A stretch of 64,000 bases of DNA from an uncultured Acidobacteriota bacterium. GTDB taxonomy: Bacteria > Acidobacteriota > Thermoanaerobaculia > Multivoradales > SZUA-115. The translations under genes and the position numbers were made by a program. The DNA lies in assembly GCA_963805975.1 (NCBI GenBank), contig CAWDVR010000001.1, positions 768,001 through 832,000 on the forward strand, given 5' to 3'. Positions 10,293 through 64,000 of this stretch are shown here, piece by piece. The notes beneath the pieces were generated by a model. That model did not search any database. It worked only from the letters and a program-made list of their open reading frames with translations, and had not been told where the DNA came from. Numbering within the stretch: position 1 is the first letter of the stretch; each line of letters opens with the position of its first letter.

Positions 10293-11936
10293 ATGGACAA
10301 ATCGAACCGCGCCCTCTCCGTCGCTTCCGGGATCTTCCTCTCACGCCTGGCCGGCTTCCTACGCGGCCGGGCGATCGCCCACTACTTCGGTGTCGGGCCC
10401 TTTGCCGATGTGTTCGCCACCGCCCTGCGGGCGCCGAACGCGCTGCAGGTGCTGCTCGGCGAGGGCACGCTCTCGGCCTCGTTCATCCCGGTCTACGTGC
10501 GGCTGCTCGAGGCGGGCCGGAAGGAGGAGGCCGGGCGCTTCGCCGGCGCCGTCCTGGGGCTGCTGGTCGCCGTCACCGCCGCTGCCGTGCTCCTGGGGAT
10601 GGCGTTCGCCGGGCCGCTCGTCGCGCTGCTGACGCCCGGCTACCTGGCCGACGCCGGCCGCGTGGCGGCGGGCGAGGCCACGGCCGACCGCTTCGCGCTC
10701 TCGGTGCAGGCGGTGCGCATCGTGTTCCCGATGACCGGCTTCCTGGTGCTCTCGGTCTGGGCGCTGGGCGTCCTCAACAGCCACCGGCGTTTTTTCCTGG
10801 CCTACTTCGCGCCCGTGCTGTGGAACGCGGCGATCCTCGCCGCGCTGGTGGCGGCGGGCCGCGGCTGGTGGCCGGGTGTCGGCGCCGCCAACCTCGACGG
10901 CCTGCTCTACGCCGCCTGCTGGGGGGCGCTCGCCGGAGGGGCGCTGCAGTTCCTGGTGCAGTTGCCTACCGCGCTCTCGCTCCTCGGTGGGCTCCGGCTC
11001 TCGCTGAGCCCGGCCGTGCCGGGAGTGAGGGAAGCGCTGGCTGCCTTCGGCCCGGTGGTGGCGGGCCGGGGCGTGGTCCAGCTCGCCGGCTATCTCGATC
11101 TGATCCTCGCCTCGCTTCTTGCGACTGGCGCCGTGGCGGCGCTCGCCAACGCGCAGGTGCTCTACCTGCTGCCGATCTCGCTTTTCGGCATGTCGGTGGC
11201 GGCGGCGGAGCTGCCGGAGCTGGCGCGGGCGGGCGCCGCTTCGCGCGGCCGGCTCGCCGAACGGCTGTCGGGGGGGCTGGGGCAGGTCGCCTTCCTGACC
11301 GTGCCGGCGGCGCTCGGCTACCTCTTCTTCGGGTTTCTGATCGTGGGCGCTCTCTACCGCACGGGCCGCTTCGGCGAGGCCGAGACCTGGCTCGTCACCT
11401 GGGTGCTCGCCGGCTACGCCCTGGGCCTGCCGGCGAGCACGCTGTCGCGGCTGCTCCAGAACAGCTTCTACGCCCTCTCCGACACCCGCACGCCGGCCCG
11501 TATCGCCGGGCTGCGGGTAGCCGTGGCCGCTGCCGCCGCGGTGCCGCTCATGGTTTGGCTCGACCGCTACACGGTACCGGGCTCGGAGCTGCGGCTGGGT
11601 GCGGTGGGATTGGCCCTCGGCGCCTCGCTCGGCGCCTGGCTCGAGCTCTGGCGGCTGCGGAAGGCGCTCGCCGTAGAGGTCCCAGATCTCGCGTGGCCCT
11701 GGCCCGAGCTCGGCCGGATGCTCGCCGCCGCGGCGCTCGCGGCGCTGCCGGCCGCGCTTCTCTGGTGGCTCGCCGCCCGGCTGCACCCGGTGCTCGCCGC
11801 GGCCCTGGTGCTGGCGCCCTTCGCGGTGCTGTACTTTCTGATAGCGCGCTGGTTGGGGCTCCGGCAGACTGAGCGGTGGCTCGGGAGCCGCTTTCGTCGC
11901 GGCGGAGGGAACAAGCGCGGGGGGGGCCGCGTTTAA
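10293..11936 (+). CDS. murJ: Lipid II flippase MurJ/MviN
   Basis: SRLAGFLR, RAPNALQVLLGEGTLSASFIPVY, LLPISLFG, FYALSDTRTP. Confidence 0.93.
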   Translation: MDKSNRALSVASGIFLSRLAGFLRGRAIAHYFGVGPFADVFATALRAPNALQVLLGEGTLSASFIPVYVRLLEAGRKEEAGRFAGAVLGLLVAVTAAAVLLGMAFAGPLVALLTPGYLADAGRVAAGEATADRFALSVQAVRIVFPMTGFLVLSVWALGVLNSHRRFFLAYFAPVLWNAAILAALVAAGRGWWPGVGAANLDGLLYAACWGALAGGALQFLVQLPTALSLLGGLRLSLSPAVPGVREALAAFGPVVAGRGVVQLAGYLDLILASLLATGAVAALANAQVLYLLPISLFGMSVAAAELPELARAGAASRGRLAERLSGGLGQVAFLTVPAALGYLFFGFLIVGALYRTGRFGEAETWLVTWVLAGYALGLPASTLSRLLQNSFYALSDTRTPARIAGLRVAVAAAAAVPLMVWLDRYTVPGSELRLGAVGLALGASLGAWLELWRLRKALAVEVPDLAWPWPELGRMLAAAALAALPAALLWWLAARLHPVLAAALVLAPFAVLYFLIARWLGLRQTERWLGSRFRRGGGNKRGGGRV

Positions 11937-44452: not shown

Positions 44453-44848
44453 TCATCGCGCCGGATCGACCCAGACGAGACCCTCCACCTGCTCGAAATG
44501 CCGGTCGAAGGAGATTAGATCGGCGCCGGTCTCCATCGCCTGGGCGGCGATCCAGATGTCGTTCGAAGGAATGGGGCAGCCCTTGCGGCGGAGCGCGTGG
44601 GTGATTCGGCTGTAGCGATCAGCAGTGGTGCGCGTCACCGGCAAGAGGCTCACGCGTGGAAGCGCCAGGAAGCGATCGAGCTCGAGCAGGTTCTGTTCCA
44701 GCCGACTCCCGCCGCGAAATCCAGCCAGTACTTCACCCACCACCACGGTCGAGAAGATCAGCGCCTTGGCGCCCATGACCAGCGCGCTCACTTTGGCATG
44801 CCCATGGCCCAGAGCCGAGTACGCGTTGGTGTCGAGCATGACTCTCAC
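44453..44848 (-). CDS. vapC: VapC family PIN-domain toxin
   Basis: MRVMLDTNAY, VVGEVLAG, PIPSNDIWIAA, SFDRHF; GTGA overlap with the antitoxin. Confidence 0.92.
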   Translation of the reverse strand: MRVMLDTNAYSALGHGHAKVSALVMGAKALIFSTVVVGEVLAGFRGGSRLEQNLLELDRFLALPRVSLLPVTRTTADRYSRITHALRRKGCPIPSNDIWIAAQAMETGADLISFDRHFEQVEGLVWVDPAR

Positions 44849-45111
44849 TTCCAGAGCTCCTCGTCGATCTCGTCGAAGATCTTGGTGGCCTCCTGGAACT
44901 CTTTCAAGTCCTGGTCGCTCCAGCTCCCGATGAACCAATCGAGCGAGTTGCCGATCACGTCCTCGTCGGGCTTGGGGGCGGCGAGCCCCGCTCCTCGCCG
45001 GAGCAACTTGAGAACGGCCTGATTCAGCGACAGGCCCTCGTCCTTCGCCAGGCTTCGGACCTTGCGGGCGAGGTCGTCGTCGAGGCCGCGGATCGTGAGC
45101 TGGTCAATCAT
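44845..45111 (-). CDS. FitA-like ribbon-helix-helix antitoxin
   Basis: QLTIRGLDDDLARKVRSLAKDEGLSLNQAVLKLL; acidic tail; GGAGG-like RBS. Confidence 0.88.
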   Translation of the reverse strand: MIDQLTIRGLDDDLARKVRSLAKDEGLSLNQAVLKLLRRGAGLAAPKPDEDVIGNSLDWFIGSWSDQDLKEFQEATKIFDEIDEELWK

Positions 45112-45122
45112 AGGCACCTCCC

Positions 45123-45179
45123 GCGAGTCAGGTATGACTCGCTCCGAGTCATTATCGTGACTCGGCGGTGCAGGGTCAA
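45123..45179 (-). promoter_or_regulatory. TA promoter TTGACC-17-GATAAT with two GAGTCA/TGACTC palindromic operators
   Basis: GCGAGTCA-4-TGACTCGC (45123-45142) and CCGAGTCA-6-TGACTCGG (45144-45165); the second straddles the -10 element. Confidence 0.8.
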
Positions 45180-45190
45180 GGGTGGCAGCG

Positions 45191-46279
45191 CTACCGCACC
45201 CGCTTGCGCCGGTTCTTGATGTAGTCGGCGAGCAGGAACTCGCCCAGGTTGTAGGGCGAGGCAAAGTAGGCGCGGCCGCGGTTGATGCGGGTCAGCTTGT
45301 CCACGAAGTCGGTCAGCAGCTCGTCCGTCGCCAGCATGAAAGTGGTGATGACCACGTTCTGCCGGCGGCAGAGGTCGGCCTCCTCGAGAGTGAGGTTGAC
45401 GATCCTCAGGTCGAGGCCGAAGGGGTTCTTGTACACCTGGCCGTTCTCGGTGATGGCCGAGGGCTTGCCGTCGGTGATCAGGAAGATCTGCTTGTTGGGC
45501 TGCTTCTGGCGGGCGAGCAGGCCGCGGGCGAGCTGCAACGCCTCGCGCGTGTTGGTGTGGTACGGCCCGGCCTGGATGTAGGGCAGGTCCGAGAGGTTCA
45601 CCCGCTCGGCCCGGTCGCCGAAGAGGATCACCGACAGGTGGTCCTTGGCGTACTTGGTGGTGATCAGCTCGGTCAGGGCGAGGGCCACCTTCTTGGCCGG
45701 CGTGATGCGGTCCTCGCCGTAGAGGATCATCGAATGGCTGACGTCGATCGCCACCACCGTGGCGCACGAGGTCAGATGCTCGGTCTCGTGGACCTCCAGG
45801 TCCTGCTCGGCCAGCTCCAGGCCGCCGTGGGTGCGCTTCATCGCGTTCTGGAGCGAGCGTGCGGCGTCCAGGTGGTGGAGGTCGTCGCCGAACTCGAAGG
45901 CGCGGGTCTCCGGCAGCCGTTCGACGCCGTCGCCGGGCGCCTGGATGGCGTGGTAGCCCGGCCCGGCCCGCTCCAGGCTGCCGAACACCTCCTCGAAGGC
46001 CGAGCGCCGCACCCGCCGCTCGCCCGAGGCGGTGAGCTGGGAGCCACCCTGGCCGTCGCGCTGGATGAGCTGCTGCTCCTCGAGGCTGGCAAAGAAGGCC
46101 TCGAGATCCACCGACTCGTCGATGTAGCCCTCCTTCTGCAGGTAGCGCATCCACTCCATGGCCTCGTCCACATCGCCGCCGGTGGCGAGCAGGAGCTGGT
46201 TGAAGAGGCGCAGCAGATCGAGCCCGGCAAGAAGGGCCTGGAGGAGAGCGGGATCGAGATAGGCGTAACGGTGGCGCAT
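45191..46279 (-). CDS. VWA domain-containing protein
   Basis: MIDAS DVSHSM, TNTREAL, LITDGKPS. Confidence 0.9.
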   Translation of the reverse strand: MRHRYAYLDPALLQALLAGLDLLRLFNQLLLATGGDVDEAMEWMRYLQKEGYIDESVDLEAFFASLEEQQLIQRDGQGGSQLTASGERRVRRSAFEEVFGSLERAGPGYHAIQAPGDGVERLPETRAFEFGDDLHHLDAARSLQNAMKRTHGGLELAEQDLEVHETEHLTSCATVVAIDVSHSMILYGEDRITPAKKVALALTELITTKYAKDHLSVILFGDRAERVNLSDLPYIQAGPYHTNTREALQLARGLLARQKQPNKQIFLITDGKPSAITENGQVYKNPFGLDLRIVNLTLEEADLCRRQNVVITTFMLATDELLTDFVDKLTRINRGRAYFASPYNLGEFLLADYIKNRRKRVR

Positions 46280-50908: not shown

Positions 50909-51110
50909 GGGCGGGTCCGGGGCGTCGCCGTGCCTGACGGCTCTGGCTCTGGAGGTGAGGGCCCGGCCGCAAACGAGCCTGGCCCGATCCCGCAAATCCG
51001 GAGAAGACTCCACTTCGGCCCGCCTCGATAATCCCAACAAGCAAAGCGTCGGCAGGCCCTCCTCCGGAACAAGAGGGCCGAAAAATTATTCTGGACCAAG
51101 GAGGTCCCAT

Positions 51111-52379
51111 ATGAAGCGAATCGCCATCCTTGCCTTCGCCTTGGCGTTGGCTGTCGTGGGTGCGTTCGTCGCCAGCGGAGGTCCGGTCTCTCCGGACGCC
51201 TCCATGGCGGCCAAGGCCATGCCAGCCTCGCAGCTCTTCGATCCGCTGGGCCAGGAGGCCGACGTGATCTACCTGCTGGCCAACTCCTCGGTGGTCTTCG
51301 GGCCCGACCCGCACGGCCGCAGCGAGGAGATCACTTTCATCGGCCCGGTGACCGTCCCCAAGTGGCCCATGAAGGGCTACGGCCGCCGCGTCCTTCCGGA
51401 CGGCAGCCAGCAGATCGACATCGAGCTGACCCAGTCCGACCTCACGGGTGAGAGCTATCTGATGGGCGGTCCGGTCATCCTCGGCGAGCACCCCGACCTG
51501 CGCTCGCTGGGAACCATCACCGAGCGTCCCGCGTCGAGCATGCGTCACGCCAGCAACAAGGCCGCGGCCACCAACGACGGCACGGCCGCCAGCGCCGAGA
51601 CCGCCGAAGAGGCCGAGGAAGTTCCGGCCGACTTCGTGGTCAAGCGGAAGGTTCTCCTGACCACCGCCAAGGGCATCCTCTACAACGAGACGGCGGTCCC
51701 GGTTCGTGGCCGCGTCGACGCCATTCCCCCGGTCAAGTTCCAGAGCACCCCGACCGGCGTCAACGTGTTCCGCGGCATGGAGCTGCCCGTTGCGCTGCTC
51801 GACAAGACCGGCAACGTGAACGGCTGGTTCTACAGCAAGGCGCACATGGCCTATGCCGTGAAGCCCGCCGCCATCGAGCGTTCCTTCCTCAAGGGCACGG
51901 TCGCGCTGCGCCAGGGCGACCGCACCGAGAACGTCGCGGTCAGCGGTCCGGTGGAGATCCACCACCTCGCGACCGGCACGTCGAAGAACGACGTCGAGTT
52001 CATGATCCTCGCGCTGCGTGGCCGCTCCGAGCTGCTGGGCGGCGACATCATGGTTTCCGAAACCTTCAGCGATCGCGATCACTTCTCCCGCGGCCAACTC
52101 GCGTGGCAGGGCGGGGGCGCCGGCCAGACCACGGCCGACCTCTTCCTCGACCTCTACACGCCGGCCACCAAGCTCACCACCCGCGAGCCGATCCAGCTCA
52201 AGGGCAACGTGAGCGCGTTCCACGAGGTGGGCAACCTGGACAAGGGCAAGCTCAGCCTGCCGATGTATCTCTCGAACGGGCAGTACTCGAGCTCCGGCGC
52301 ACGGACCCTCTATGACGAGTCCGAGAAGCCGGCGGTCGACGTGGTGAGCATCAACTTCAACCTCACCGAGCGGATGTAG
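51111..52379 (+). CDS. Secreted protein with two tandem beta-rich domains (DUF6073/DUF6004-like, tentative)
   Basis: AAGGAGG RBS; signal peptide; internal repeat LTGESYLMGGPVILGE / LRGRSELLGGDIMVSE. Confidence 0.7.
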   Translation: MKRIAILAFALALAVVGAFVASGGPVSPDASMAAKAMPASQLFDPLGQEADVIYLLANSSVVFGPDPHGRSEEITFIGPVTVPKWPMKGYGRRVLPDGSQQIDIELTQSDLTGESYLMGGPVILGEHPDLRSLGTITERPASSMRHASNKAAATNDGTAASAETAEEAEEVPADFVVKRKVLLTTAKGILYNETAVPVRGRVDAIPPVKFQSTPTGVNVFRGMELPVALLDKTGNVNGWFYSKAHMAYAVKPAAIERSFLKGTVALRQGDRTENVAVSGPVEIHHLATGTSKNDVEFMILALRGRSELLGGDIMVSETFSDRDHFSRGQLAWQGGGAGQTTADLFLDLYTPATKLTTREPIQLKGNVSAFHEVGNLDKGKLSLPMYLSNGQYSSSGARTLYDESEKPAVDVVSINFNLTERM

Positions 52380-52414
52380 CTCGAGCCACCTCGCCCTGGG
52401 AGGGGCCGCGAGCC

Positions 52415-55400
52415 ATGCCGAGGTCCGGCCTCGCTCCAGATCGATCCAAGACCGAAGGCGGGTCCGGCCGCCTTCGTTTTGTTTTTTGGCGGCTGGCGCT
52501 CTGCACGGCGGTGGTGCTGGTCGCGGCTCCGGCCTGGCCCCAGCTCGGCTCCCGGAACGGACCGGCCTCGATCGAGACGCTCGCCGGCGGCGGCCCGGTG
52601 GGGGACGGGGGACCGGCGCTCGCGGCCCGGCTCAACCTGCCGGGCGGCGTGCTCGAGGCGCCGAACGGCGACCTCGTGATCATCGACTTCGGCAACCACC
52701 GCATCCGGCGCGTGGACCGGCAGACTGGGTTGATCGACACCATCGTCGGCACCGGCGAGGCCGGCTACAACGGCGACGGCATCCCGGCGCGGCAGGCGCA
52801 GCTCTCGCGGCCCGAGTACGCCACCTACGGCCCGGAGGGCGACCTCTACATCGCGGATTCCTACAACAACCGGGTGCGCAAGGTGGATCACGCCACGGGC
52901 CTGATCTCCACCGTGGCCGGCAGCGGGGAGCGTGGCGCGGCAGGCGACGGCGGGCCGGCCACCCGGGCGGAGATGCACTTTCCCGAGGGACTGACCCTCG
53001 ACCGCGAGGGCAACCTCTTCATCGGCGACACGGTGAACCGGCGTATCCGCCGGGTGGACGCCAAGACCGGCATCATCACCACCTACGCCGGTTCAGGCGA
53101 GGTCGGCGTCAACCGCGAAGGAACGCCGGCGGCGGAGGCCAAGTTCCTGCGTCTCGCCCGGATCGCCATCGACGGCGCCGGCAACCTCTACGTGGCCGAC
53201 AGCCCCACGCAGCGCATCCTGGTGATCGACGCCGCGACCCGGCAGGTGCGCACCTACGCCGGCACCGGCAAGCCCGGCTTCTCCGGCGACGGCGGGCCCG
53301 CGACCGCGGCCCAGATGCGCTATCCCGAGGGCCTCTTCGTGGCCGGGAACGGCGATCTCTACTTCGCCGACGTGGCCAACCACCGGGTGCGGCGGGTGGA
53401 GGCCAGGACCGGCCTCATCGACACCGTGGCCGGCAACGGCGAGAAGGGCTTCGCCGGCGACGGCGGCCCGGCCCGCGAGGCGCGGCTGTGGAGCCCCGGC
53501 CGCACCTGGCTCGACGCGCAGGGCAACCTCCTGATCTCCGACATCCTCAACTCGCGGATCCGGCGCGTGGACGCCAGGACCGGCGTGATCTCGACCGTGG
53601 CCGGCAGCGGCAGCTTCGGCGACGGCGGCCCGGCCAATCAGGCGGTGCTCTCGGTGCCGGGCGACGTGGTCTATGCGCACGGCAAGGTCTACGTCGCGGA
53701 CTACGGCACGCGGCGGGTGCGGGCCGTGGACCTGGCGAGCGGCGTGATCTCGACCGTGGCCGGCGGCGGCACCGGCTCGGAGGGCGGCATCCCGGCCACC
53801 GAGATCGAGCTGCTGCTGCCCGAGGGCATCGCCGTCGACGGCGGCCGGGCGCTCTACATCGCCGACAACCCGGCGAGCCGGGTGTGGAAGGTGGACCTCG
53901 CGACCGGCATGCTCTCCGTCTTCGCCGGCAGCGGGCAACCGGGCTACTCGGGCGACGGCGGCCCGGCGACGGCGGCCCAGCTCTACCTGCCGGGCGCGGT
54001 CGCCGTCGGAACGGACGGTACGATCTATATCTCCGACTTCGGCAACCAGGCGGTGCGCGTGGTGGATCCCCGGAGCGGCGTGATCCAGACGCTCTCCGCC
54101 GCGCACGCGCCCGGCGAGGGAGACCCGATCCAGGTGGGAGTGGTCAGCCTGGAGTCCACGCCCCAGGGGCTCTACCACTTGGTCCACGATCTCTCCGAGG
54201 TGCATCTTTTCCATCCCGAAGACCGCACGGTCTCCCCGGTTCCGCTGGCGCCAGGGGGCCTGCCGGCGGCGCGCTCCGGCGACACCCAGATGATCGACGT
54301 CGCCGTGCACGGCCGCGAGATCTATCTCGCCGACCCGCTGGGGCACCGCGTGCTCCGCTTCGAGCTGGGCGGCGCCACGGTCGACCTCCTGGCCGGCAAC
54401 GGCGTCCAGGGCTTCGCCGGCGATGGCGGCCCGGCGACCCAGGCCTCGCTCTTCCAGCCCGGCGGCGTGACGGTGAGCGAGGACGGCCGCGAGGTGTTCA
54501 TCGCCGATACCAAGAACCAGCGCATCCGGCGCGTGCGCCTGCCGGCGCCCGAGCGCCAGGCCGCGGGCCGCCGCGGCATCCATTCCTACGAGCTCTCGAA
54601 CGGCCTCGACCTGGTGGTCGCCGTGGCCCCGGAGCTCGATCTGGCAGCGGTGAACCTGACGGCGGCGATCGGCTCGATCGACGATCCGCCGGCGCAGTCC
54701 GGAATGGCGCACCTCTTGGAGCACGTCACCCTGGGCGGCTCGGTGGCGCTGGGCTCGCTCGACCCGCCGGCCGAGGCGGCGGCGCTCGCGCACCTCGACC
54801 GCGCCGATCGCAAGCTCCGCGAGGCGCGGCACGGTGGCGGGTCCTCGGTGGCGCCTGCCGGCACGCCGAGCCAGACCGAGGGGCCCGACCCCGACACCCT
54901 GGCAGCGCTCGAACGGGACTACGGCCAGGCGCTCGAGGCGGCGCGCAAGCTGGCGGAGAGCGGCGAGATCCTGGGCGGGCGCCTGGAGGCCAAGGGAGGG
55001 ATCGGTCTCAACGCCACCACCGGCAACGACGTCACCCAGTACTTCGGCTGGATGCCCGTCGAGCACTTGGAATACTGGCTCTCGCTCGAGGCCGATCGCC
55101 TGCAGAACCCGGTGTTCCGCCGCTTCTACAGCGAGCGCGAGGTGGTGTTGCAGGAGATCGAGGTGCTGACCGGCGGGCGCACGACCCTCCAGGACCGGGT
55201 GATGCAACAGGTCTTCCCCGGCGGGCCGCAGGCGCAGCCGCCGGCCGGCGATCCGGCGGAGACGCGCGACATCGACCGGCCGCTGGCGCTCGACTTCTTC
55301 TCCCGCTTCTATCGGCCCGAGAACCTGGCGCTGGCGGTGGTGGGCAACGTCGATCCCGCGGTGGTTCGGCGGCTGGCCGAACGCCATCTCGGCGCTTGGA

Positions 55401-55996
55401 AACCGGCCGCGGCCGGCGGGCCGCTGCCGGCGCCGAGCGAAAGCTCCACGGCGGCGCCGCGTGTCGCCAAGTTCAACAGCGTGCGCGCGCCGTTCGTCTA
55501 CTTCGCCTTTCCCAGGCCTGCTCTCACCGGGCAGGAGAAGGCCGGGCTCGAGGTGCTCGCCGAGCTCTTCAACTCGCCCGAGCTCTCGCCCTTGAAGCGG
55601 CGCCTGCTGGGCGAGGCAGGGATCGCCTGGGACGTGTTCGCCGAGGCCCTCTACCCCTCGCAGAAGCGGCCGGGCGCCTTCCTGCTACGGGTGAGCGGCA
55701 ACGGCGGGGTCGAGCACGAGGCGTTGATCCGCGAAGCCACCGGCGTGCTGCGGGCGCTCGATTCGACGCCCGAGGAGGATCTCGCCGGCGCGATCCTGCA
55801 AGCGGAGCTGCGCCTCGCGACCGAGCTCGACGATCCGCCCACGCTCGCCGCCCTTCTGGCACAGAATCAGGCGGTGCACGGCAACTGGAGCCTGCCCTTC
55901 GACCGGCTGGAGACCCTGCGCCACCTGACGCCCGCCGAGGTGCGCCGCACGGCGCAGAAGGTGCTCCAAGTGCCCGCGGACGGAGGAGGAAGCTGA
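52415..55996 (+). CDS. NHL-repeat beta-propeller fused to an M16 (insulinase) metallopeptidase
   Basis: About 12 GDGGPA-type NHL blades, then YELSNGL, GMAHLLEH, NATT, EREVVLQE, YRPENLALAVVGNVD. Confidence 0.88.
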   Translation: MPRSGLAPDRSKTEGGSGRLRFVFWRLALCTAVVLVAAPAWPQLGSRNGPASIETLAGGGPVGDGGPALAARLNLPGGVLEAPNGDLVIIDFGNHRIRRVDRQTGLIDTIVGTGEAGYNGDGIPARQAQLSRPEYATYGPEGDLYIADSYNNRVRKVDHATGLISTVAGSGERGAAGDGGPATRAEMHFPEGLTLDREGNLFIGDTVNRRIRRVDAKTGIITTYAGSGEVGVNREGTPAAEAKFLRLARIAIDGAGNLYVADSPTQRILVIDAATRQVRTYAGTGKPGFSGDGGPATAAQMRYPEGLFVAGNGDLYFADVANHRVRRVEARTGLIDTVAGNGEKGFAGDGGPAREARLWSPGRTWLDAQGNLLISDILNSRIRRVDARTGVISTVAGSGSFGDGGPANQAVLSVPGDVVYAHGKVYVADYGTRRVRAVDLASGVISTVAGGGTGSEGGIPATEIELLLPEGIAVDGGRALYIADNPASRVWKVDLATGMLSVFAGSGQPGYSGDGGPATAAQLYLPGAVAVGTDGTIYISDFGNQAVRVVDPRSGVIQTLSAAHAPGEGDPIQVGVVSLESTPQGLYHLVHDLSEVHLFHPEDRTVSPVPLAPGGLPAARSGDTQMIDVAVHGREIYLADPLGHRVLRFELGGATVDLLAGNGVQGFAGDGGPATQASLFQPGGVTVSEDGREVFIADTKNQRIRRVRLPAPERQAAGRRGIHSYELSNGLDLVVAVAPELDLAAVNLTAAIGSIDDPPAQSGMAHLLEHVTLGGSVALGSLDPPAEAAALAHLDRADRKLREARHGGGSSVAPAGTPSQTEGPDPDTLAALERDYGQALEAARKLAESGEILGGRLEAKGGIGLNATTGNDVTQYFGWMPVEHLEYWLSLEADRLQNPVFRRFYSEREVVLQEIEVLTGGRTTLQDRVMQQVFPGGPQAQPPAGDPAETRDIDRPLALDFFSRFYRPENLALAVVGNVDPAVVRRLAERHLGAWKPAAAGGPLPAPSESSTAAPRVAKFNSVRAPFVYFAFPRPALTGQEKAGLEVLAELFNSPELSPLKRRLLGEAGIAWDVFAEALYPSQKRPGAFLLRVSGNGGVEHEALIREATGVLRALDSTPEEDLAGAILQAELRLATELDDPPTLAALLAQNQAVHGNWSLPFDRLETLRHLTPAEVRRTAQKVLQVPADGGGS

Positions 55997-55998
55997 CG

Positions 55999-57333
55999 AT
56001 GACGGGTGCCCTCCTGGGGCTCGTCCTTGCCGGCTGGGCCGTGGTGCCCGCCACGGTCGAGGCGCCGCCCGGCCTGGCGGCTTTCGAGCAGCTGACCCTG
56101 GACAACGGCCTCCGGGTGCTGCTCGGCACCCCGGCGCGGCCGGTGGAGCTCACCGAGGCCCTGCTCGTGGTCGAAGCGGGAACCCGCTCGCAGGGCTCGG
56201 GTGAGGAAGAGAGCGCCCGTGTGGCCGCCGAGGCCTTCTTGGGCGGCAGGCTGGCCGGCCAGGAAACGACGATCCGGCGCCAGCTCGCACGATCCGGCAT
56301 CACGCTGGACTACACCGTGGGCCGCGAGGTCGCGGTGTTCCGCTTCGCGGCGCCGGAGCGGCAGAGCGGCGCGCTGGTGCGGGCGCTGGCCGGGTTGCTG
56401 CGCCGCGAGAGCCCGGCCCCGGCCGTCTGGGAACAGGCGGTCGAGGCGCGGAAGCTCGCTGCCGCCGCCGAGGAAGCCGATCCCTGGCAGCGTTCGCTCG
56501 AGACGCTCGACGGCCTCCTCTGGCACGAGCCCGAAAGCGATCGCCGAGACGCTGGCGCCGCCCCCGACCTCGCCCGCCTCGAAGCCTTCCGCACCGCAAC
56601 CTACCGGCCGGACCGCATGGTGATCGCCCTGTGGGGCAAGGCCTCGGCGGCCGAGCTCGGCGCGCTGGTACGCGACGAGCTCGCGGCCCTCGCCACGGCG
56701 ACCGGCGGTGCGCCGGAGCCGGAGCCGGCCGAGCCCGAGCTGCGGCCGGCGGGTGGACTCCGTTGCCTGACCGATCCCGCCGCCCAGCCACCGGCCCTGC
56801 TGGTCGGTTTGGGCGCCGAGCTGCCGGACGACCGCGCTTTCTACGGCTGGCAGCTCCTGGCCCACATCCTGGGCGCCAGCCACACCTCGCGCCTCCACGA
56901 GCGCCTGCGGGTGCGCGAGCCCTTCGTCTACACGGTGGAGGCCACCTGCAGCCCGGTGGGCAGCCGCGGGATGACGCTCCGCATCAGTGCCCAGACCGCG
57001 GAGCTGGAGCGCGCTCGCCAGGTGGTGATGGAGGAGCTGCGGCGCCTGGTGAGCGAAGAGGTGTCGCAGCAGGAGCTGGACTTGGCGCGCGCCATCTTCA
57101 GGAGCCGGCTGCTCCTCGACCAGGGCTCGTTCCGCGACCAGTTCTACCGCCGGGCGCTGGCGCTGCTCTCCCCTCGGCCGCCCCGGGACCTGGCGCCCGC
57201 CGCGGTGGAGCTCGACGCGCTGACCCCGGCCTCGCTCCTCGCCATTCTGCGCCGCACGCTGCGGCCGGATCTCGCGACCACAGTCGTCGTCTCCGCCGCG
57301 GCCGAGCCGCTCTGCGAAAGGGCGCCGTCGTGA
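55999..57333 (+). CDS. M16 family non-catalytic subunit
   Basis: LTLDNGLRVL, YRPDRMVIALWG, SRLHERLRVREPFVY (R/Y pair); lacks HXXEH. Confidence 0.8.
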   Translation: MTGALLGLVLAGWAVVPATVEAPPGLAAFEQLTLDNGLRVLLGTPARPVELTEALLVVEAGTRSQGSGEEESARVAAEAFLGGRLAGQETTIRRQLARSGITLDYTVGREVAVFRFAAPERQSGALVRALAGLLRRESPAPAVWEQAVEARKLAAAAEEADPWQRSLETLDGLLWHEPESDRRDAGAAPDLARLEAFRTATYRPDRMVIALWGKASAAELGALVRDELAALATATGGAPEPEPAEPELRPAGGLRCLTDPAAQPPALLVGLGAELPDDRAFYGWQLLAHILGASHTSRLHERLRVREPFVYTVEATCSPVGSRGMTLRISAQTAELERARQVVMEELRRLVSEEVSQQELDLARAIFRSRLLLDQGSFRDQFYRRALALLSPRPPRDLAPAAVELDALTPASLLAILRRTLRPDLATTVVVSAAAEPLCERAPS

Positions 57334-58436
57334 GCCCGGCGGTACGGCGCCGGCTGGTCTGGAGCGGGCTGATCTGGGGCCGGCTGGCTTGTGGGCTGAG
57401 CCTGGCGCTGGTCGCCGGCTCGTCCTGGTGGGCCGTGGTCGCCGGCGGCGACCCGATGGACCTCGCGTCCGCGCACGCCCTCTTCCGCCTGCCGCCGGTC
57501 GGGGCGCCGGAGGAGAACCCGATCACCGAGGCCAAGGTGAAGCTGGGGAGGAAGCTTTTCTTCGATCCCGGCCTGTCGGCCGACGGCTCGGTGAGCTGCG
57601 CCTCCTGCCACCGGCCGGAACGCTTCTTCGCCGACGACCGGCCGCTCTCCTTCGGCATCGGCCACGCGGCCGGCGACCGCAACGTGCCGACGCTGCTCAA
57701 CGCGGTCTACTCTTCGAGCCTGATGTGGGACGGCCGCTCGACCAGCCTCGAGGACCAGGTCCGCTATCCGGTCACCCACCCGAACGAGATGAGCATGACG
57801 CCGGAGAAGGTCGAGGACTACCTCGCGGCGAGCCCGGAGTACACGGCGCTCTTCCAGGAGGCCTTCGACGAGGACTGGATCGGCTGGGAGCAGATCTGCC
57901 AGGCGCTCGCCGCCTTCGAGCGCACGCTCCTCTCCGGCAACGCGCCCTTCGACCGCTTCCTGGCCGGGGATGCCGGCGCCGTGCCGCCGGCGGCGCGCCG
58001 CGGCTGGGAGCTGTTCCGCGGCAAGGCGGGCTGCGTGAGCTGCCATCACCACAGCGCCGAGCAGCCGTTCTTCACCGACTTCGAGTTCCACAACGCGGGC
58101 GTGGGCTGGTCGGCGGAGAAGCCGGACCTCGGCCGCTACCAGATCTCCAAGGCGCGCGAGGACAAGGGTGCCTTCCGGACCCCCAGCCTGCGCAACGTGG
58201 CGATGACCGCGCCCTACATGCACGACGGCAGCCTGCCGGACCTGGCGGCGGTCCTCGAGCACTACGTCAAGGGAGGGGAGCCCAACCCCCTCCTCGACCT
58301 CCGCATCCGCCCGCTGGACCTGAGCGCGGGAGAGAAGCTGGACCTGATCGCGTTCCTGGAGTCGCTGACCGGCGAGATGAGCTACACGCCCGACCCGACG
58401 ATGGTCACGGCGAGCCGGGGCGCTCCCGACCCCTGA
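57330..58436 (+). CDS. Di-heme cytochrome c peroxidase / MauG family protein
   Basis: LGRKLFFDP, CASCH, RNVPTL, WDGR, CVSCH, FRTPSLRNVAMTAPYMHDG; GTGA overlap with the upstream gene. Confidence 0.92.
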   Translation: MSPAVRRRLVWSGLIWGRLACGLSLALVAGSSWWAVVAGGDPMDLASAHALFRLPPVGAPEENPITEAKVKLGRKLFFDPGLSADGSVSCASCHRPERFFADDRPLSFGIGHAAGDRNVPTLLNAVYSSSLMWDGRSTSLEDQVRYPVTHPNEMSMTPEKVEDYLAASPEYTALFQEAFDEDWIGWEQICQALAAFERTLLSGNAPFDRFLAGDAGAVPPAARRGWELFRGKAGCVSCHHHSAEQPFFTDFEFHNAGVGWSAEKPDLGRYQISKAREDKGAFRTPSLRNVAMTAPYMHDGSLPDLAAVLEHYVKGGEPNPLLDLRIRPLDLSAGEKLDLIAFLESLTGEMSYTPDPTMVTASRGAPDP

Positions 58437-58443
58437 GGAGAGG

Positions 58444-60441
58444 ATGATGCGCAGCCGACGGACGTTCTCCTTCCTTGTCTTGCCCGTGCTCTCGTTGCTG
58501 GGGGCGACGGCGCTCCTCGCCTGGGGCGAGAGCCAGGGCAGCGGCCGGCTGCGGGTCCCCGTCTACACCGCGGGCGGCCGGGTCGAGCTGGTCGCTGGCG
58601 CCGGCAACGTGCGCGACGGCGGCAAGGCGATCGAGGCCGTGATCACCGGCGTCGCCGGCCTGGCCGCGGACCGGGAAGGCAACCTCTACTTCAGCGACTC
58701 CGGCCACGGCCGTGTGCGCAAGATCGACGCGCGGACGGGCACCATCTCGACCGTCGCCGGCAACGGCCTGCTGATCAGCGAGGAGAGCTCGCTCCTCGCC
58801 ACCGAGCAGGCGCTGCGCACTCCCGGGCCGCTCGCCCTGGACGCCGAGAAGGGCCTGCTCTACGTGGGCGAGGTGGCCGGCCGCCGGGTACAGAGGATCG
58901 ATCTCGCGAGCGGCACCGCCCAGGAGCTGCCGGTGCCGGAGGGCGGCGGCTTCGGCAAGATCAGCGGCCTGGTCTGGACCCCGACCGGCCTGGTGGTGGC
59001 CGACGCCGAGCGCGGCCAGATCCTGAAGCTGGTCCGCAGCCTGTGGATCGACATGCTGCCGGCGGGCGCGGAGCTCAGGGGAGGCATCCGCTCCCTGGCG
59101 CGCGACGGCGTGGGCCACCTCTACCTGAGCGAGCCCGAGGGCCACCGCGTGCTCAAGCTCGACACCAACAGCGGCCAGCTCACCCCCTACCTGGGCACCG
59201 GCCAGGCCGGCAAGGGAAGCGGCGGCGGGCCCGCGGCGGCCACCGCGATCACCGCGCCGGACGGCCTGGCGTTCGACGCCGCAGGCAACCTGCTGGTGGC
59301 GGACCTCGGCAACCAGCGCATCCTCGAGGTGAACGGGCAGACCGGGGAGGCGACGGTCCGCCATCAGTCGACCGCCGCCAAGGGCAGCATCCTCGAATGG
59401 AGCCCCGGTTCGCTGGCGCTCGACGGCCAGGGCAACCTGTGGCTGGGCGACGTGCACCGGGACCGCGTGCTGCGCTTCGTCGTCGGCGCCACCCAGCCGG
59501 ACGTGATCGCCGGCGGTGCCGGCCTCGGCGACGGCGGCCCGGCCACCGCGGCCCATCTCGCCCAGCCCGGAAGCGTGGTGGCGGACCGCCGGGGCAACGT
59601 CTACATCTCGGACACGCTGCACCACCGGGTGCGGGTGGTCGAGGCCGAGAGCGGCAGCATCCGCACGCTGGTCGGCACCGGCAGCCCCGGCTTCAACGGC
59701 GACGGACTTCCCGGCGCCGAGACCCGGCTCGCCTACCCGGCGCAGCTCCAGCTCGACGAGGCGGGCCGGCTCTACATCGGCGACGACCACAACCATCGCG
59801 TGCGGCTCTACGACCCGGCCACGGACAAGGTCTCGACCCTGGCCGGGAACGGGGAGGTGGGGGAGGCGGGGGACGGCGGCCCGGCCAAGGACGCGTCGCT
59901 CTCCCACCCGTATGGCATCTACCTCGACGGGCCCGACACGCTGGTGGTGGCGAGCGCCGTGAGCTCGACGCTGCGGCGCATCGACCTGCGCAGCGGCCGC
60001 ATCTGGCACGTGCCGCTCCAGGACCCGACCGTGCCGGCGGACCGGGTGATCCAGGGCCTCGGCCGCTGGGACGGCATGCTGCTGCTGGCCATGCCGCGGC
60101 CGTCGCCCGGCTCGATCGACCTGCTGAGCAGGACCGGCAAGCTGACCCGCCTGTTCTCGGCACCGGACGTCGAGTCCCCCTACGGTGCCGCGGTCTCGCC
60201 GGAGGAAGAGCTCTTCGTCTGCGACACGGGCCGCAACCAGGTGCTGCGGTGGACGGGCCGGACGATGGAGGTGGTGGCGGAAGGCCTCGGCCAGCCGCGC
60301 GCCATCAGCTTCGATCCCCGGGGCAACCTGCTGGTGGCCGACACTCTCCACAACCGCGTGCTGCGCATCCTCCTGCACGAGCCGCCGGGCGTGCTGGCCT
60401 CCAACCCGCCGGCCACCTTCGCCTCGCCCAGCACGGTCTGA
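58444..60441 (+). CDS. Secreted NHL-repeat beta-propeller protein
   Basis: Signal peptide; repeats GNLYFSDSGHGRVRKID, GDGGPA, GNLLVADTLHNRV. Confidence 0.88.
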   Translation: MMRSRRTFSFLVLPVLSLLGATALLAWGESQGSGRLRVPVYTAGGRVELVAGAGNVRDGGKAIEAVITGVAGLAADREGNLYFSDSGHGRVRKIDARTGTISTVAGNGLLISEESSLLATEQALRTPGPLALDAEKGLLYVGEVAGRRVQRIDLASGTAQELPVPEGGGFGKISGLVWTPTGLVVADAERGQILKLVRSLWIDMLPAGAELRGGIRSLARDGVGHLYLSEPEGHRVLKLDTNSGQLTPYLGTGQAGKGSGGGPAAATAITAPDGLAFDAAGNLLVADLGNQRILEVNGQTGEATVRHQSTAAKGSILEWSPGSLALDGQGNLWLGDVHRDRVLRFVVGATQPDVIAGGAGLGDGGPATAAHLAQPGSVVADRRGNVYISDTLHHRVRVVEAESGSIRTLVGTGSPGFNGDGLPGAETRLAYPAQLQLDEAGRLYIGDDHNHRVRLYDPATDKVSTLAGNGEVGEAGDGGPAKDASLSHPYGIYLDGPDTLVVASAVSSTLRRIDLRSGRIWHVPLQDPTVPADRVIQGLGRWDGMLLLAMPRPSPGSIDLLSRTGKLTRLFSAPDVESPYGAAVSPEEELFVCDTGRNQVLRWTGRTMEVVAEGLGQPRAISFDPRGNLLVADTLHNRVLRILLHEPPGVLASNPPATFASPSTV

Positions 60442-60473
60442 GACCGCCGCCGCCCCAGCCGCCCCCGCCGACC

Positions 60474-62831
60474 ATGCGCCTGCGCCGCGCCATCCGTTTC
60501 ACGCTCGAGCACCCCCGCGCCACGGTCGCCGCGTTCCTGCTGCTCTCCGCCGGCTGGCTGCCGTTCGTCGCCGGGCTGCGGCTCGAGACCGACGGCCGCG
60601 ACCTCTTCTCGCCGCGCGACCCCGCCATCCGCTGGCAGGACGAGGTGGACCGGGAGTACGCCAGCTCGGACTTCCTGGTGGTGGGCCTCGAGGCCCTGCC
60701 GGGCCACGAGCTGTGGGCGCCGGCACCGCTCAATGCCGTGCTGCGCCTGTCGCAGCGGCTGGCGGCGCTGCCGGGCGTCGAAGGCGAGGATCTGCGCAGC
60801 CTGGCCACCGAGTTCTCTCCCGAGTGGATCGACGGCGCCCTGCACCTCGCGCCGCCGATCCGCGAGACGGTGCGCGATCCGGCGCAGGTGGAGGCGGTGC
60901 GCCGCGCCGCCCTCCGCGAGCCGCTCTTCGCACGCGTGCTCCTGGCGGCAGACGGACGCGGCACGGCGATCTACCTGCCGCTGGCGCTCGACGCCGACCG
61001 CCGCGCGCTCTACCATCAGGTCGAGGCGCTGCTCGCCGAAGCGTGGCAGGCCGACCCGGCGCTCGCGAGCGGCTACCGCTTCCATCTCCTCGGCCCGGCC
61101 GCCGCCGAGTCGCTGCTCGGCGAGCACGTGCTCACCGATCTCGGGCGCCTCCTGCCGCTGGCCTTCCTGGTGGTCGCGGCCACGCTCTGGCTCTGGTTCC
61201 GGCAGGGCTCGGTGGTCTGTGCCGGGCTGGGGGAGGGCGGCTCGATCGTGCTCTGGACGCTGGGCCTGATGGCGGCGCTGGGCAAGCCCATCTCGCTGGT
61301 CACGGTGGTGATGCCGGTGATCCTCGTCACCTACTGCGTGGCGGACACCATCCACCTCGCGCAGCACTTCAGCGCCCGCTGCGCCGCGAGCGCCGACCGC
61401 TCCTTCGCCGGCCGGGTCGAGGCCATGGACCGCACGCTCGACGAGGTGCTCTCCCCGGTGACCTTCACCTCGCTGACCACCGCCGTCGGCTTCTTCGCGA
61501 TCGCCGTCAGCCCCATCCCGCCGCTACGGGACTTCGGGCTGTTCTCCGGCCTCGGCGTGCTGATCGCGCTCGCCGTGTCGGTGTTCGTGGTGCCCGCGTC
61601 GCTCCTCGCCGGCGGCTTCGGCCGCCGCGCGGCCGGGGTCTCCGGCGACGGCTCCCCCCGCTTCGGGCGCCAGCTCGCTGCGCTCTCCACCGCCGCCGCC
61701 CGCGCGCCGTGGACGGTGGTGGCGGCGACGGCCTTGCTCACCACCGTGCTCGGCCTGGGAGCCCTGAAGCTCGAGATCCAGGACAGTTGGCTCCAGAACT
61801 TCAGCGCCAGAAGCCCGCTGGTACGCTCCGACGAGTGGTTCAACCGCGGCTTCTTCGGTAGCAACGTGGTCAACGCCGTGCTCACGCCGCCGCTGGGCAC
61901 GGTGCACGACCCGGCCTTCCTGGCGGAGGTTAAGCGCCTGCAACGCGAGCTCGGCGAGCTGGGCGAGGTGGGGGGAAGCCTCTCCCTTGCGGACTCGCTC
62001 GAAGCCGTGGCGCGGAGCCTCGAAGGCGCCTCGCGGCTGCCCCGGGACCGCCGCGAGAGCGAGGGCTGGGCCATGCTCTACCGCATGGCCGGAGGTAGCA
62101 ACAGCCTGGACTCCTACGTCGACCCCGGAGAGTCTTCGACCAACCTGTGGGTCTTCCTCAACCAGGCCGACTACCGGCGCACGGCGGCGGTGGTGGCGGC
62201 CCTCTCGCGCTTTGACTGGCGCCTCGCGGGCGAGGCCCGGCCGGAGGTCCGGCTCGCCGGCGATGCCTACCTGAGCTACCGCCTGGTCGACTCCATCGCC
62301 CGCAGCCAGCGGCGCAGCGCCTTCGCCGCCCTGCTGATGACCTTCCTCACGGTGCTGTGGATGCTCCGCTCGACCGCGACCTCGATGCTGGCGGTGGTGC
62401 CGGTCGCCCTCTCGGTGATCTGGAACTTCGGGTTCATGGGCTGGAGCGGCCTGCCGCTCGGGGTGGCCACCTCGACCTTCTGCGCCATCGCCTTCGGCAT
62501 CGGCGTCGACTTCGCACTGCACTGGATCGCCCGCCTGCGGCTCGGTCTCGAGCGGGGCCTCGGCTGGGAGGAGGCGATCCGCTTCACCGGCCGGACGACC
62601 GGCGGCGCCATGCTGCTCCAGGGCCTGGTCCTGGTGCTGGGCTTCGGCGTGCTCCTGCTCTCGGAGGCGCCGCCCAACCGCGCGCTGGCGCTGGTGCTGA
62701 CGGTGAACCTCGCGGCCTGCCTCGGCGCGAGCCTGCTGCTGCTGCCGGCCATGGCCACGCTCCTGGCGCGGCGGCTGGGCCTCGCCGGCGTCTCGGCGCG
62801 CTTGGTGGGCTCGGCGGAGGCCCCGGTTTGA
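60474..62831 (+). CDS. MMPL/RND family exporter
   Basis: Two-fold TM architecture; VADTIHL, TSLTTAVGF, PIPPLRDFG, GIGVDFALH. Confidence 0.9.
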   Translation: MRLRRAIRFTLEHPRATVAAFLLLSAGWLPFVAGLRLETDGRDLFSPRDPAIRWQDEVDREYASSDFLVVGLEALPGHELWAPAPLNAVLRLSQRLAALPGVEGEDLRSLATEFSPEWIDGALHLAPPIRETVRDPAQVEAVRRAALREPLFARVLLAADGRGTAIYLPLALDADRRALYHQVEALLAEAWQADPALASGYRFHLLGPAAAESLLGEHVLTDLGRLLPLAFLVVAATLWLWFRQGSVVCAGLGEGGSIVLWTLGLMAALGKPISLVTVVMPVILVTYCVADTIHLAQHFSARCAASADRSFAGRVEAMDRTLDEVLSPVTFTSLTTAVGFFAIAVSPIPPLRDFGLFSGLGVLIALAVSVFVVPASLLAGGFGRRAAGVSGDGSPRFGRQLAALSTAAARAPWTVVAATALLTTVLGLGALKLEIQDSWLQNFSARSPLVRSDEWFNRGFFGSNVVNAVLTPPLGTVHDPAFLAEVKRLQRELGELGEVGGSLSLADSLEAVARSLEGASRLPRDRRESEGWAMLYRMAGGSNSLDSYVDPGESSTNLWVFLNQADYRRTAAVVAALSRFDWRLAGEARPEVRLAGDAYLSYRLVDSIARSQRRSAFAALLMTFLTVLWMLRSTATSMLAVVPVALSVIWNFGFMGWSGLPLGVATSTFCAIAFGIGVDFALHWIARLRLGLERGLGWEEAIRFTGRTTGGAMLLQGLVLVLGFGVLLLSEAPPNRALALVLTVNLAACLGASLLLLPAMATLLARRLGLAGVSARLVGSAEAPV

Positions 62832-63628
62832 GAGGCACTCTCCGTTCGGGTCTCGCTCTCCTGCTTCTGGGCGCCCTGCTTCGTGGTGGGCTGGCGCTCG
62901 CCGGCGCGCCCCCCGCGGCCGAGCCCGCCGATGGCCTCGAGATCATGCGGCGGGTCAACGCGCGGACCCGGGGCCAGGCGGCGAGCCTGCGCCTGGAGAT
63001 GATCCTGCGCGACGAGAAGCGGGGCGAGTTCAAGAAGCACATCGACGGCCTCCGGCGGCTCTACCCCGACGGCTATCGCACCAGCTACGTCATCACCGCG
63101 CCCGATCACGAGCAGGGGATCGGCCTGCTGCTCTCCGAGGACCCGGCGCAGCGCGGGATGTGGATGTACTTCCCCGCCAACCGCCAGCTCCTGCACGTGG
63201 CCAGCCGCGGGCTCTCGGCGCTCGCCAGCGACTTCAGTTGCGAGGACCTGCTGGTGAGCGTGCCGCTCGCGGACTACGAGTTCCGCCTGCTCGAGCGCAC
63301 CACCCTCGACGGCCGCCCGGTCTCCAAGGTGGAGATGAAGCCCGCCACCGAGCGCCTGCGGCTGGAGCTGGGGTTCTCGCGCGCCATCGGCTGGGTGCGC
63401 GAGGACATCTGGCTGATCGCCCGCGCCGAGTACGAGGACCAGGCCGGCCAGGTCTTCAAGACCTTCCTCGCCGACGATGTGCGGCTGGTGGACGGCGTGT
63501 GGACCGTGCAGCGGTTCTCGATGCGCAATCTGCGCGCCCGCCACGCGACCGAGGTCACGGTGACCGAGATCGACTACTCGGCCAAGCCGCCCGCGGAGCG
63601 CTTCGCGCCCGCCACGTTCCACGAGTAG
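62828..63628 (+). CDS. LolA-like outer membrane lipoprotein-sorting protein
   Basis: TTGA overlap with the MMPL gene; signal peptide; WMYFPA...ASDFSCEDL, VDGVWT. Confidence 0.85.
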   Translation: MRGTLRSGLALLLLGALLRGGLALAGAPPAAEPADGLEIMRRVNARTRGQAASLRLEMILRDEKRGEFKKHIDGLRRLYPDGYRTSYVITAPDHEQGIGLLLSEDPAQRGMWMYFPANRQLLHVASRGLSALASDFSCEDLLVSVPLADYEFRLLERTTLDGRPVSKVEMKPATERLRLELGFSRAIGWVREDIWLIARAEYEDQAGQVFKTFLADDVRLVDGVWTVQRFSMRNLRARHATEVTVTEIDYSAKPPAERFAPATFHE

Positions 63629-63647
63629 GGAGCTGCGCTGCCCGCCG

Positions 63648-64000
63648 CTACAGCGGCAGCTTCACGGCGCGCAGCCGGCGATTCAGGCTGTCCGTGATGT
63701 AGAGGAAGCCGTCGTGGCTGAAGGCCAGGCCCCGCGGCAGGTTGAGCTGGGCCGCTCGCGCGGGCCCGCCGTCGCCGGCGTAACCGCGCACCCCGTTGCC
63801 GACCACGGTCTCGATCTGGTGGGACGCGGCGAGGATGCGGCGTACGGAGTGGTTGTTGGTGTCGGCGAAGTAGAGGTTTCCCTCGCCGTCGAAGAGCAGG
63901 CTGTCCGGGTGGCTCAGCTCGGCCTGCTCCGCCGGCCCGCCGTCGCCGGCGTAGCCCCGCACGCCGGTGCCGGCGAAGGTTCTGATCCGGCCCCCGGCGT
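63648..64000 (-). CDS. NHL-repeat protein, C-terminal end (5' part beyond window)
   Basis: GYAGDGGPA twice, GNLYFADTNNHSVRRI, LYITDSLNRRLR; frame open to the window edge. Confidence 0.85.
   Translation of the reverse strand, partial: AGGRIRTFAGTGVRGYAGDGGPAEQAELSHPDSLLFDGEGNLYFADTNNHSVRRILAASHQIETVVGNGVRGYAGDGGPARAAQLNLPRGLAFSHDGFLYITDSLNRRLRAVKLPL

Follow-up and report, generated by a model that had tools for sequence, protein, structure and literature searches.

A conserved extracytoplasmic gene module of Acidobacteriota linked to enediyne-type polyketide synthase cassettes

The DNA analysed here, a stretch of 64,000 nucleotides (nt) referred to below as the window, comes from an uncultured bacterium of the Acidobacteriota (contig CAWDVR010000001.1 of assembly GCA_963805975.1) and corresponds to G000:C1:768001-832000, where G000 is the genome of the window, C1 and C3 are its contigs, and Gnnn and Lnnn denote genomes and loci throughout. 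Its right-hand part carries an operon of seven plus-strand genes, g1 to g7, which together with the genes downstream and an AraC-type regulatory gene makes up what we call the module. The operon opens with g1 (51111..52379), an exported protein of the family DUF6004 predicted to consist of two tandem DynF-like beta-barrels (Pfam, AlphaFold2, Foldseek, VIA and hhalign), which is followed by g2 (52415..55996), an exported fusion of an NHL beta-propeller with a catalytic-type M16B peptidase (Pfam NHL/teneurin-NHL and M16, together with the motif), and by g3 (55999..57333), its putative exported non-catalytic M16B partner (Pfam M16_C only, without HxxEH). Then come g4 (57330..58436), an exported di-heme enzyme of MauG/MbnH type (Pfam CCP_MauG, two CxxCH), g5 (58444..60441), an exported NHL propeller protein (Pfam NHL), g6 (60474..62831), a transporter of the MMPL/RND family (Pfam MMPL), and g7 (62828..63628), a LolA-like periplasmic carrier (Pfam LolA_like). 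Upstream, 104 nt 5' of g1 and on the same strand, lies a box of the form GCAA-N5-RAGAAG (50992..51006), identified by Gibbs sampling with enrichment controls.

All seven open reading frames (ORFs) are open and intact at these positions, the intergenic gaps from g1 to g7 being 35, 2, −4, 7, 32 and −4 nt. Six of the proteins have a single N-terminal hydrophobic segment and g6 has about ten; export is called for the module proteins from hydropathy only. An eighth gene, g8, converges on the operon from the minus strand, with the 3' end of a 731-amino-acid exported NHL protein (Pfam NHL) at 63648..64000, 19 nt past g7, and its start outside the window at G000:C1 833843. A first-pass annotation, made from the letters alone, had described seven co-oriented genes with gaps of 35 nt or less and two 4-nt overlaps, signal or anchor sequences in six of them and an MMPL pump as the seventh, and a third NHL gene converging from the right, all of which we reproduced. 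It had also suggested a biosynthetic cluster continuing past 64000. The module does continue, spanning about 14 kb beyond the window to C1:846404, but no polyketide synthase (PKS) was found across the 48 kb 3' of the window, nor any nonribosomal peptide synthetase when sought directly downstream over the same 48 kb. Between C1 834131 and 846404 lie genes for a TonB-C-like protein, three small exported paralogues, an ABC permease and a PQQ/BamB-type propeller, and then for a di-heme-NHL fusion, an acyltransferase-3 protein, a VOC/glyoxalase protein and an AraC regulator of SgcR2 type. The hairpin predicted in the g1-g2 gap lacks significance, since 19 of 300 shuffled sequences were equally stable.

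AlphaFold2 models of full-length g1 (pLDDT 85-87) have as their best Foldseek match DynF from the dynemicin pathway (6ubl; E 4.8e-6 and 2.3e-6), and the C-terminal half aligns with DynF by VIA at Z 16.9 (root-mean-square deviation 3.3, 160 residues aligned), the next match being a generic barrel at Z 12.6. An eight-stranded barrel with DynF topology is thereby recognised in the C-terminal half, and in the N-terminal half through the internal repeat and the profile; profiles of the two halves match each other in hhalign with a probability of 98.7%, which bears out the initial description of the first gene as a repeat protein. A variable low-complexity insertion occupies about residues 140-171. 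With a profile of single-barrel relatives of g1, DynF ranked first in PDB (E 0.016), and among PDB sequence searches those with g1, A1 and P0131 did not return DynF and those with A2 and P0139 returned it only at E 0.35 and 0.24. DynF is a 211-amino-acid single barrel that dimerises; PMC8725005 describes it as holding palmitate and reports that its orthologue Sgd15 is indispensable at an early stage of sungeidine synthesis. Since its halves are homologous and share the DynF fold, g1 would thus be a single-chain counterpart of the DynF dimer, and it may serve as carrier or template for a C15 polyene or polyyne. Unlike DynF/TnmF/Sgd15, it is a double barrel with a signal-like N-terminus, and because it is doubled and exported we regard it as a homologue of DynF rather than as a shown orthologue. 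The earlier suggestion that the first gene encodes a peptide substrate is accordingly better replaced by a DynF-like double barrel that binds a lipid or polyene. Actinobacterial DUF6004 proteins are about 400 amino acids long, have no signal segment and are 21-25% identical to g1; plasmid records gave no DUF6004 match. Single-barrel relatives of g1 occur in two other AraC loci, in one of which the protein is exported and encoded inside a pksE cluster, that is, a cluster with an enediyne-type PKS (PksE).

The two M16 proteins appear to be the usual M16B pair of a catalytic and a non-catalytic subunit, as had been proposed at first reading. The catalytic motif is HLLEH at residues 766-770 of g2, with a downstream Glu; HxxEH is kept in g2 and in 10 of 11 relatives, the exception being a divergent ORF of L040, and is absent from g3 and from all eight of its relatives (8/8). 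The NHL and M16 parts of g2 are two separate genes in most relatives, and in L002 and L029 the g3 part is fused to the catalytic half, which is suggestive of the two subunits binding each other. PqqF/PqqG-type pairs likewise combine a catalytic HxxEH half with a non-catalytic half; those described here differ in being exported and NHL-fused, and the g2/g3-type M16 proteins score 42 bits against the NCBIfam PqqF model, the cut-off of which is 320.

The di-heme enzyme g4 has two CxxCH motifs, a WDGR Trp and, at the position of the Met ligand of cytochrome c peroxidase (CcP), Tyr315, residues to which we presume the roles known from related di-heme enzymes, with the Tyr as heme ligand. The Tyr is found at the CcP Met position in 12/12 aligned di-heme sequences, one of the 12 lacks the Trp, and Gln/Pro/Glu pocket residues are also kept in the di-heme sequences examined (n=12). 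The predicted heme-ligand pattern is thus that of the MauG/MbnH class. A classical peroxide-detoxifying CcP was considered for g4 and rejected because the Met ligand on the second heme is replaced by Tyr315. The likeness to MauG/MbnH/BthA-type enzymes extends to both CxxCH motifs, the WDGR Trp, the pocket residues and the Tyr, whereas g4 falls below the NCBIfam cut-offs (MauG 267, cut-off 443.85; MbnH 244, cut-off 362.85), its relatives are often NHL-fused, and partner genes of those systems were not noticed. In the second di-heme copy downstream, the WDGR Trp and the PYMH His are lost. In several relatives, as in that second copy, the g5 propeller and the di-heme enzyme form one fused protein. 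For g6 and g7, Pfam MMPL and LolA_like score above cut-off, and the nearest NCBIfam model, HAE3, is below its cut-off; in several relatives an FtsX/MacB-type ABC permease and ATPase stand beside the LolA-like gene in place of the MMPL gene.

In order to compare gene neighbourhoods, 13 locus sets, about one per lineage, were assembled from 25 metagenome loci, two genome loci and genome searches; many are bounded by contig ends or by a 10-kb flank, and the near-identical soil contigs L010-L013/L021 were scored as one lineage. The records carry the labels Holophagales, Acidobacteriota or Thermoanaerobaculia. The core of g1, the NHL and M16 parts of g2, and g3 is jointly present in 11/13 sets, mostly from Acidobacteriota, and of the two sets lacking the full core, one stops at a contig end and the other is a divergent partial copy. 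Because these four parts recur, the arrangement is not chance: gene order is conserved, and the homologues are not scattered, which the first-pass annotation had named as the outcome that would speak against a system. Around this core the complement varies, with g4 in 10/13 sets, a LolA-like gene in 9/13, MMPL in 4/13, a full-length FtsX-type ABC permease in three sets other than those four, AHSA1 proteins in 4/13 and VOC in 3/13. Fusions vary as well (NHL-M16, M16-M16, di-heme-NHL and TonB-C-NHL), which suggests that the module proteins may form shared complexes.

The module is rare and patchy. DUF6004 was found in 6 of 300 genomes of the order, in 4 of 151 relatives and, among 401 genomes of the phylum, in G000 and as one borderline match; an orthologue of g3 occurs in 4/300 genomes of the order, every one of them a DUF6004 carrier. 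An A1 match in G264 (E 9.9e-4) was set aside as chance. A soil RNA run contains a 1491-nt contig about 97% identical to the window that covers 51055-52557 at depth 38, and for g2-g7 only short low-depth pieces, although contigs cannot rank expression; g1 of a close relative is therefore present in an RNA library, from which neither transcription nor its level follows. As for the arrangement of DUF6004 genes, two paralogues, one with a long insert and one with none, flank three tandem g8-type NHL genes in L037 (G490:C48:228000-238200), and this pairing recurs in L029 and L030. The PKS cassette described below has a DUF6004 gene on either side in L011/L012 and in L013/L021, the two copies being near-identical and on one soil contig in each case; as the beginning of L013 is repeated in L021, this duplication may in part be an assembly artefact.

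The regulator provides a link to enediyne clusters. The sole tblastn match in G000 of SgcR2, from the C-1027 cluster, is the AraC gene of the module (38% over 244 amino acids, E 2e-39), and SgcR2/UcmR7/TnmR7 are described as conserved positive regulators of enediyne clusters in PMC8210685 and PMC9464397. On plasmids, 64 records match the module-type AraC at E 1e-20, many of them near-identical Streptomyces plasmids, and among the matches listed an E3 gene lies 5.4-15.3 kb from the AraC gene in 40/40. An SgcR2-type AraC is present in 18 of the 151 relatives and all 18 carriers have E3, kin among them not being independent; in 9/17 other carriers no more than 30 kb separates the AraC gene from E3, and a tenth has it beside the PKS.

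The box GCAA-N5-RAGAAG was obtained by Gibbs sampling of 11 DUF6004 upstream regions, nine of which hold the core, with an information content of 20.8 compared with 13.5-15.6 in three shuffles. Exact boxes number 34 in 17 module loci (9 being training sites) versus 1.75 expected, and 14 in 10 held-out AraC loci without DUF6004 versus 0.4 expected, whereas none occurs in 17 orphan-cassette loci (0.9 expected). Many boxes lie 30-130 nt 5' of the first gene of an operon and in the same direction, gene starts having been placed mechanically so that some distances are off, and some stand back to back between divergent genes. G000 has 10 exact boxes genome-wide, and in the C-1027 cluster sgcE1 is preceded by a near-core site. 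We infer that the box is the binding site of the SgcR2-type AraC activator. Two further AraC loci were observed on the way. G445 has three boxes in tandem, and in L088-L089 (G446:C44:23000-45000) an SgcR2-type AraC gene stands beside a cytoplasmic DynF-like barrel protein, with four boxes, unlinked to E3, and with genes for FAD oxidases, two VOC proteins, an O-methyltransferase, asparagine synthase and a P450; judged from its gene content, this is a different, apparently cytoplasmic tailoring cluster.

G000 itself has an intact five-gene enediyne PKS cassette (E, E10, E3, E4, E5) at C3:326310-336438, with the Pfam content DUF1702, FG-GAP, RnfD-like, ketosynthase (KS)-acyltransferase (AT)-acyl carrier protein-ketoreductase-dehydratase and 4HBT. 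The PKS has 1947 amino acids without stops, and the KS Cys/His/His and AT GHSLG motifs are intact. Identities to the C-1027 proteins are 39% for E3, 45% for E4, 49% for E5, 49.9% for the PKS and 56% for E10, and the G000 match of SgcE2 is the E3 gene itself. In G490, genes E3-E4-E5-PKS-AraC-thioesterase end one gene away from the LolA-like gene of the module, and in the soil lineage L010-L013/L021 the cassette and an E6-type flavin reductase lie between module genes, so that cassette and module are contiguous in 2/13 locus sets (G490; L010-L013/L021). E3 (DUF1702) is very common in the order (99/300 genomes) and is present in 6/6 DUF6004 genomes; in the family of G490, E3 is found in 2/57 genomes and DUF6004 in 1/57. 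No tailoring genes could be recognised in the regions around the cassettes of G000, G401, G402, G403, G524 and G658.

Other cassettes show a varied surrounding. The pksE cluster L097 (G425:C16:50001-70800) has extra E4-like proteins and an exported single DynF-like barrel, and also holds an ABC permease, VOC, MMPL, an E7-like P450 and AraC. In the pksE clusters L091-L092 (G428), L094 (G465) and L090 (G445) the AraC gene is directly 3' of the PKS, with an E7-like P450 in G428 and G465 and an ABC1 kinase-like gene in G465. Near the pksE cassettes of L063, L081, L093 and L097 there are MMPL-like genes with about 31-34% identity to g6, another MMPL-like gene (G000:C3:342009-344507; its identity to g6 is not among these figures) is near the G000 cassette, and a DUF5995 gene is found near the pksE cassette in G000 and G490. 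A partial, unannotated E3-like match is present on Sinorhizobium meliloti plasmid NZ_CP021805.1 (H114).

Taken together, the link of the module to PksE is well supported, and the chemistry of the module is inferred. The first-pass annotation had hazarded an enediyne-type PksE next to the operon; the data favour the PksE, although the cassette is on C3 and adjoins the module only in other genomes. Its idea of a line that oxidises, processes and exports a product holds in so far as a conserved extracytoplasmic module is supported. On balance, and with modest confidence, we favour the view that the operon serves an enediyne-type (PksE) polyketide pathway as the arm that tailors, packages and exports its product outside the cytoplasm. 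Enediyne synthesis draws on a discrete linear polyene released by the PKSE together with its thioesterase, and Gui et al. reportedly found in 2024 that the full cassette makes a diiodotetrayne. In the pathway that we propose, the AraC protein would switch the operons on via the box, the MMPL pump (or ABC permease) and the LolA-like carrier would move a hydrophobic C15 product to the periplasm, and g1 would hold it there in the way that palmitate is held by the DynF barrel. With peroxide, the His/Tyr di-heme enzyme might then oxidise or cyclise the product, or oxidise iodide, with the NHL propellers as a possible scaffold and the M16B pair processing or releasing a carrier protein, while the cytoplasmic VOC protein, and the AHSA1/START proteins in relatives, may provide self-protection.

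Known natural-product systems resemble the module in part. The anthraquinone-fused enediyne clusters (dyn, tnm, ucm, sgd) share with it a DynF-type barrel, an SgcR2/TnmR7-type AraC, VOC and the minimal pksE cassette, as well as START/AHSA1-type proteins of about 300 amino acids and a flavin reductase, the latter two found here in relatives. PMC5181780 lists for the tnm cluster an AraC, the DynF orthologue, a 303-amino-acid self-sacrifice protein, glyoxalases and E6; the AHSA1 and VOC proteins of the module echo tnmB and tnmS1-3 of its supplement Table S3, without sequence matches. In contrast, the tnm and ucm gene tables given there contain no NHL, M16, di-heme peroxidase or LolA-like genes, NHL, M16 and MMPL are not mentioned in the ten supplements of that paper, and in G000, unlike in dyn/tnm/ucm/sgd, the cassette is unlinked to the module. 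Among module ORFs, family annotation, as opposed to comparison with reference sequences, gave no Pfam/NCBIfam match to TnmC/D/G, DynE13, DynA1/A2/A4/A5 or R3. The 9-membered C-1027 cluster (sgc) has G000 homologues of its E3, E4, E5, PKS, E10 and SgcR2, whereas E7, E8, E9, E11, E1 and R1 had no match in G000 (tblastn, E 1e-4). Exported NHL propellers within a natural-product cluster are also known from scytonemin (ScyD/E/F, the nearest NCBIfam model), the final steps of that pathway being periplasmic; here, however, scores are far below cut-off, scytonemin genes were not noticed, and a PKS rather than an aromatic amino-acid origin is proposed.

Several observations weigh against the tailoring and export role that we favour. 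Cassette and module are on different contigs in G000 (C3 versus C1), G658 and G524, only one exact box of G000 is in the module (that at 50992-51006), and there is none at the cassette. Of the six DUF6004 genomes, three come from a family in which 65/92 genomes have E3, so that the co-occurrence of DUF6004 and E3 is weak on its own, and 93/99 E3 carriers are without the module. Since the G000 cassette is unlinked and box-free, and its E3 is sister to that of the module-free G401 (support 100/99) with the same flanking genes, the cassette has been inherited and works or persists without the module in most carriers. The missing matches to E7, E8, E9 and E11 count here as well, as does the lack of sequence match between the VOC and AHSA1 proteins and solved enediyne resistance proteins (TnmS/CalC/DynU16-type). 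Large surface proteins and PEP-CTERM proteins that are not known to be linked to enediynes contain DUF6004/DUF6073-like domains too, and the function of DynF is itself unproven, the protein having bound palmitate and not heptaene in a co-expression test (PMC8725005). Therefore, because the cassette is not contiguous in G000 and the 9-membered-core genes are missing, the locus is not shown to be an enediyne producer, though it is akin to the downstream half of an enediyne cluster.

The module might alternatively belong to an enediyne regulon in a protective capacity, with g1 and the small barrels sequestering, the di-heme enzyme destroying and the pumps expelling a reactive polyyne or enediyne, self-made or released by neighbours. 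The recurrence of VOC and AHSA1 proteins, the unlinked and box-free cassette of G000, and the RNA contig of a relative's g1 beside short pieces of the downstream genes would suit this role, subject to the stated limit on ranking by contigs. We nevertheless think it unlikely: no cassette-free module genome was found (E3 in 6/6), and the multi-enzyme set seems larger than known enediyne resistance uses, which consists of single sequestering or self-sacrifice proteins and pumps. In addition, DynF-type proteins are tied to early biosynthesis in PMC8725005. His/Tyr di-heme enzymes and M16B pairs of PqqF/G type act on proteins or peptides, and, with MauG and MbnH as the nearest NCBIfam models of the di-heme enzyme (below cut-off) and a cassette adjoining the module in only 2/13 sets (most others being bounded by contig ends or 10-kb flanks), the operon could be a PKS-independent periplasmic line for modifying proteins or peptides. 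A protein such as g1 would have one of its residues oxidised by the MauG-like enzyme and would be cut by the M16B pair, the product would leave through MMPL and LolA, and the pksE link would reflect shared islands. This version, which follows the earlier proposal, is rather unlikely, given that a gene of the enediyne-cluster AraC family lies inside the module, the box is common to DUF6004-free pksE/AraC loci, g1 has the DynF fold, and no precursor peptide was noticed at the module, where short ORFs were not systematically searched.

It is also conceivable, if very unlikely, that the G000 module is a stranded island that has lost its own cassette and is decaying, and that only relatives with a linked cassette function. 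The single exact box, the second di-heme copy without the WDGR Trp and PYMH His, and the sister genome G401 without the module could be explained in this way. However, the seven ORFs and the C3 PKS are uninterrupted and keep their catalytic motifs, the same split arrangement is seen in G658, and an RNA library contains g1 from the relative at about 97% identity, transcription not being implied.

The three small exported paralogues downstream are about 190 amino acids long and without a Pfam family (L003:6001-7295, plus strand, and 11236-11805, minus strand). Their relatives are divergent to a DUF6004 gene in several loci and are candidate apoprotein-like carriers; in Atlas, this protein matches only unnamed Acidobacteriota clusters, with weak lipocalin/DUF1579 leads. 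Elsewhere in the window, a PIN/VapC-like ORF with a short antitoxin-like ORF upstream occupies 44453-45264 on the minus strand, judged by translation alone.

In the literature searched, with subscription papers and bioRxiv supplements, which could describe parts, lying outside its scope, DUF6004 was not mentioned, and no paper brought together three of the four terms enediyne, NHL repeat, M16 and cytochrome c peroxidase; listings on enediynes in combination with Acidobacteria or the periplasm contained no such cluster. An extracytoplasmic finishing and export route for an enediyne-type polyketide, the likely route here, was thus not found in these searches. According to PMC10308959, Actinobacteria and ascidian extracts are the only sources from which enediynes have been reported, although KS genes of enediyne type occur in many phyla. 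Through the module, DUF6004, an uncharacterised family, gains a fold and a context, and the box could be used for finding and testing all genes of such pathways. A bolder possibility, which we regard as tentative and on the doubtful side, is that Acidobacteriota harbour a new enediyne or polyyne class, the reactive core of which would be built in the periplasm by a complex of DynF-like double barrels and NHL propellers with an M16B protease pair and a di-heme oxidase of bis-Fe(IV) type, and that a mobile, AraC-controlled module would turn orphan pksE cassettes (E3 being found in a third of the genomes of the order) into warhead producers. It has long been asked how the linear PKSE product is turned into a cyclic core; with the module, a diderm host supplies candidates for the downstream proteins, in a set that is both compact and conserved. 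The module also suggests that the finishing of a reactive product can take place outside the cytoplasm.

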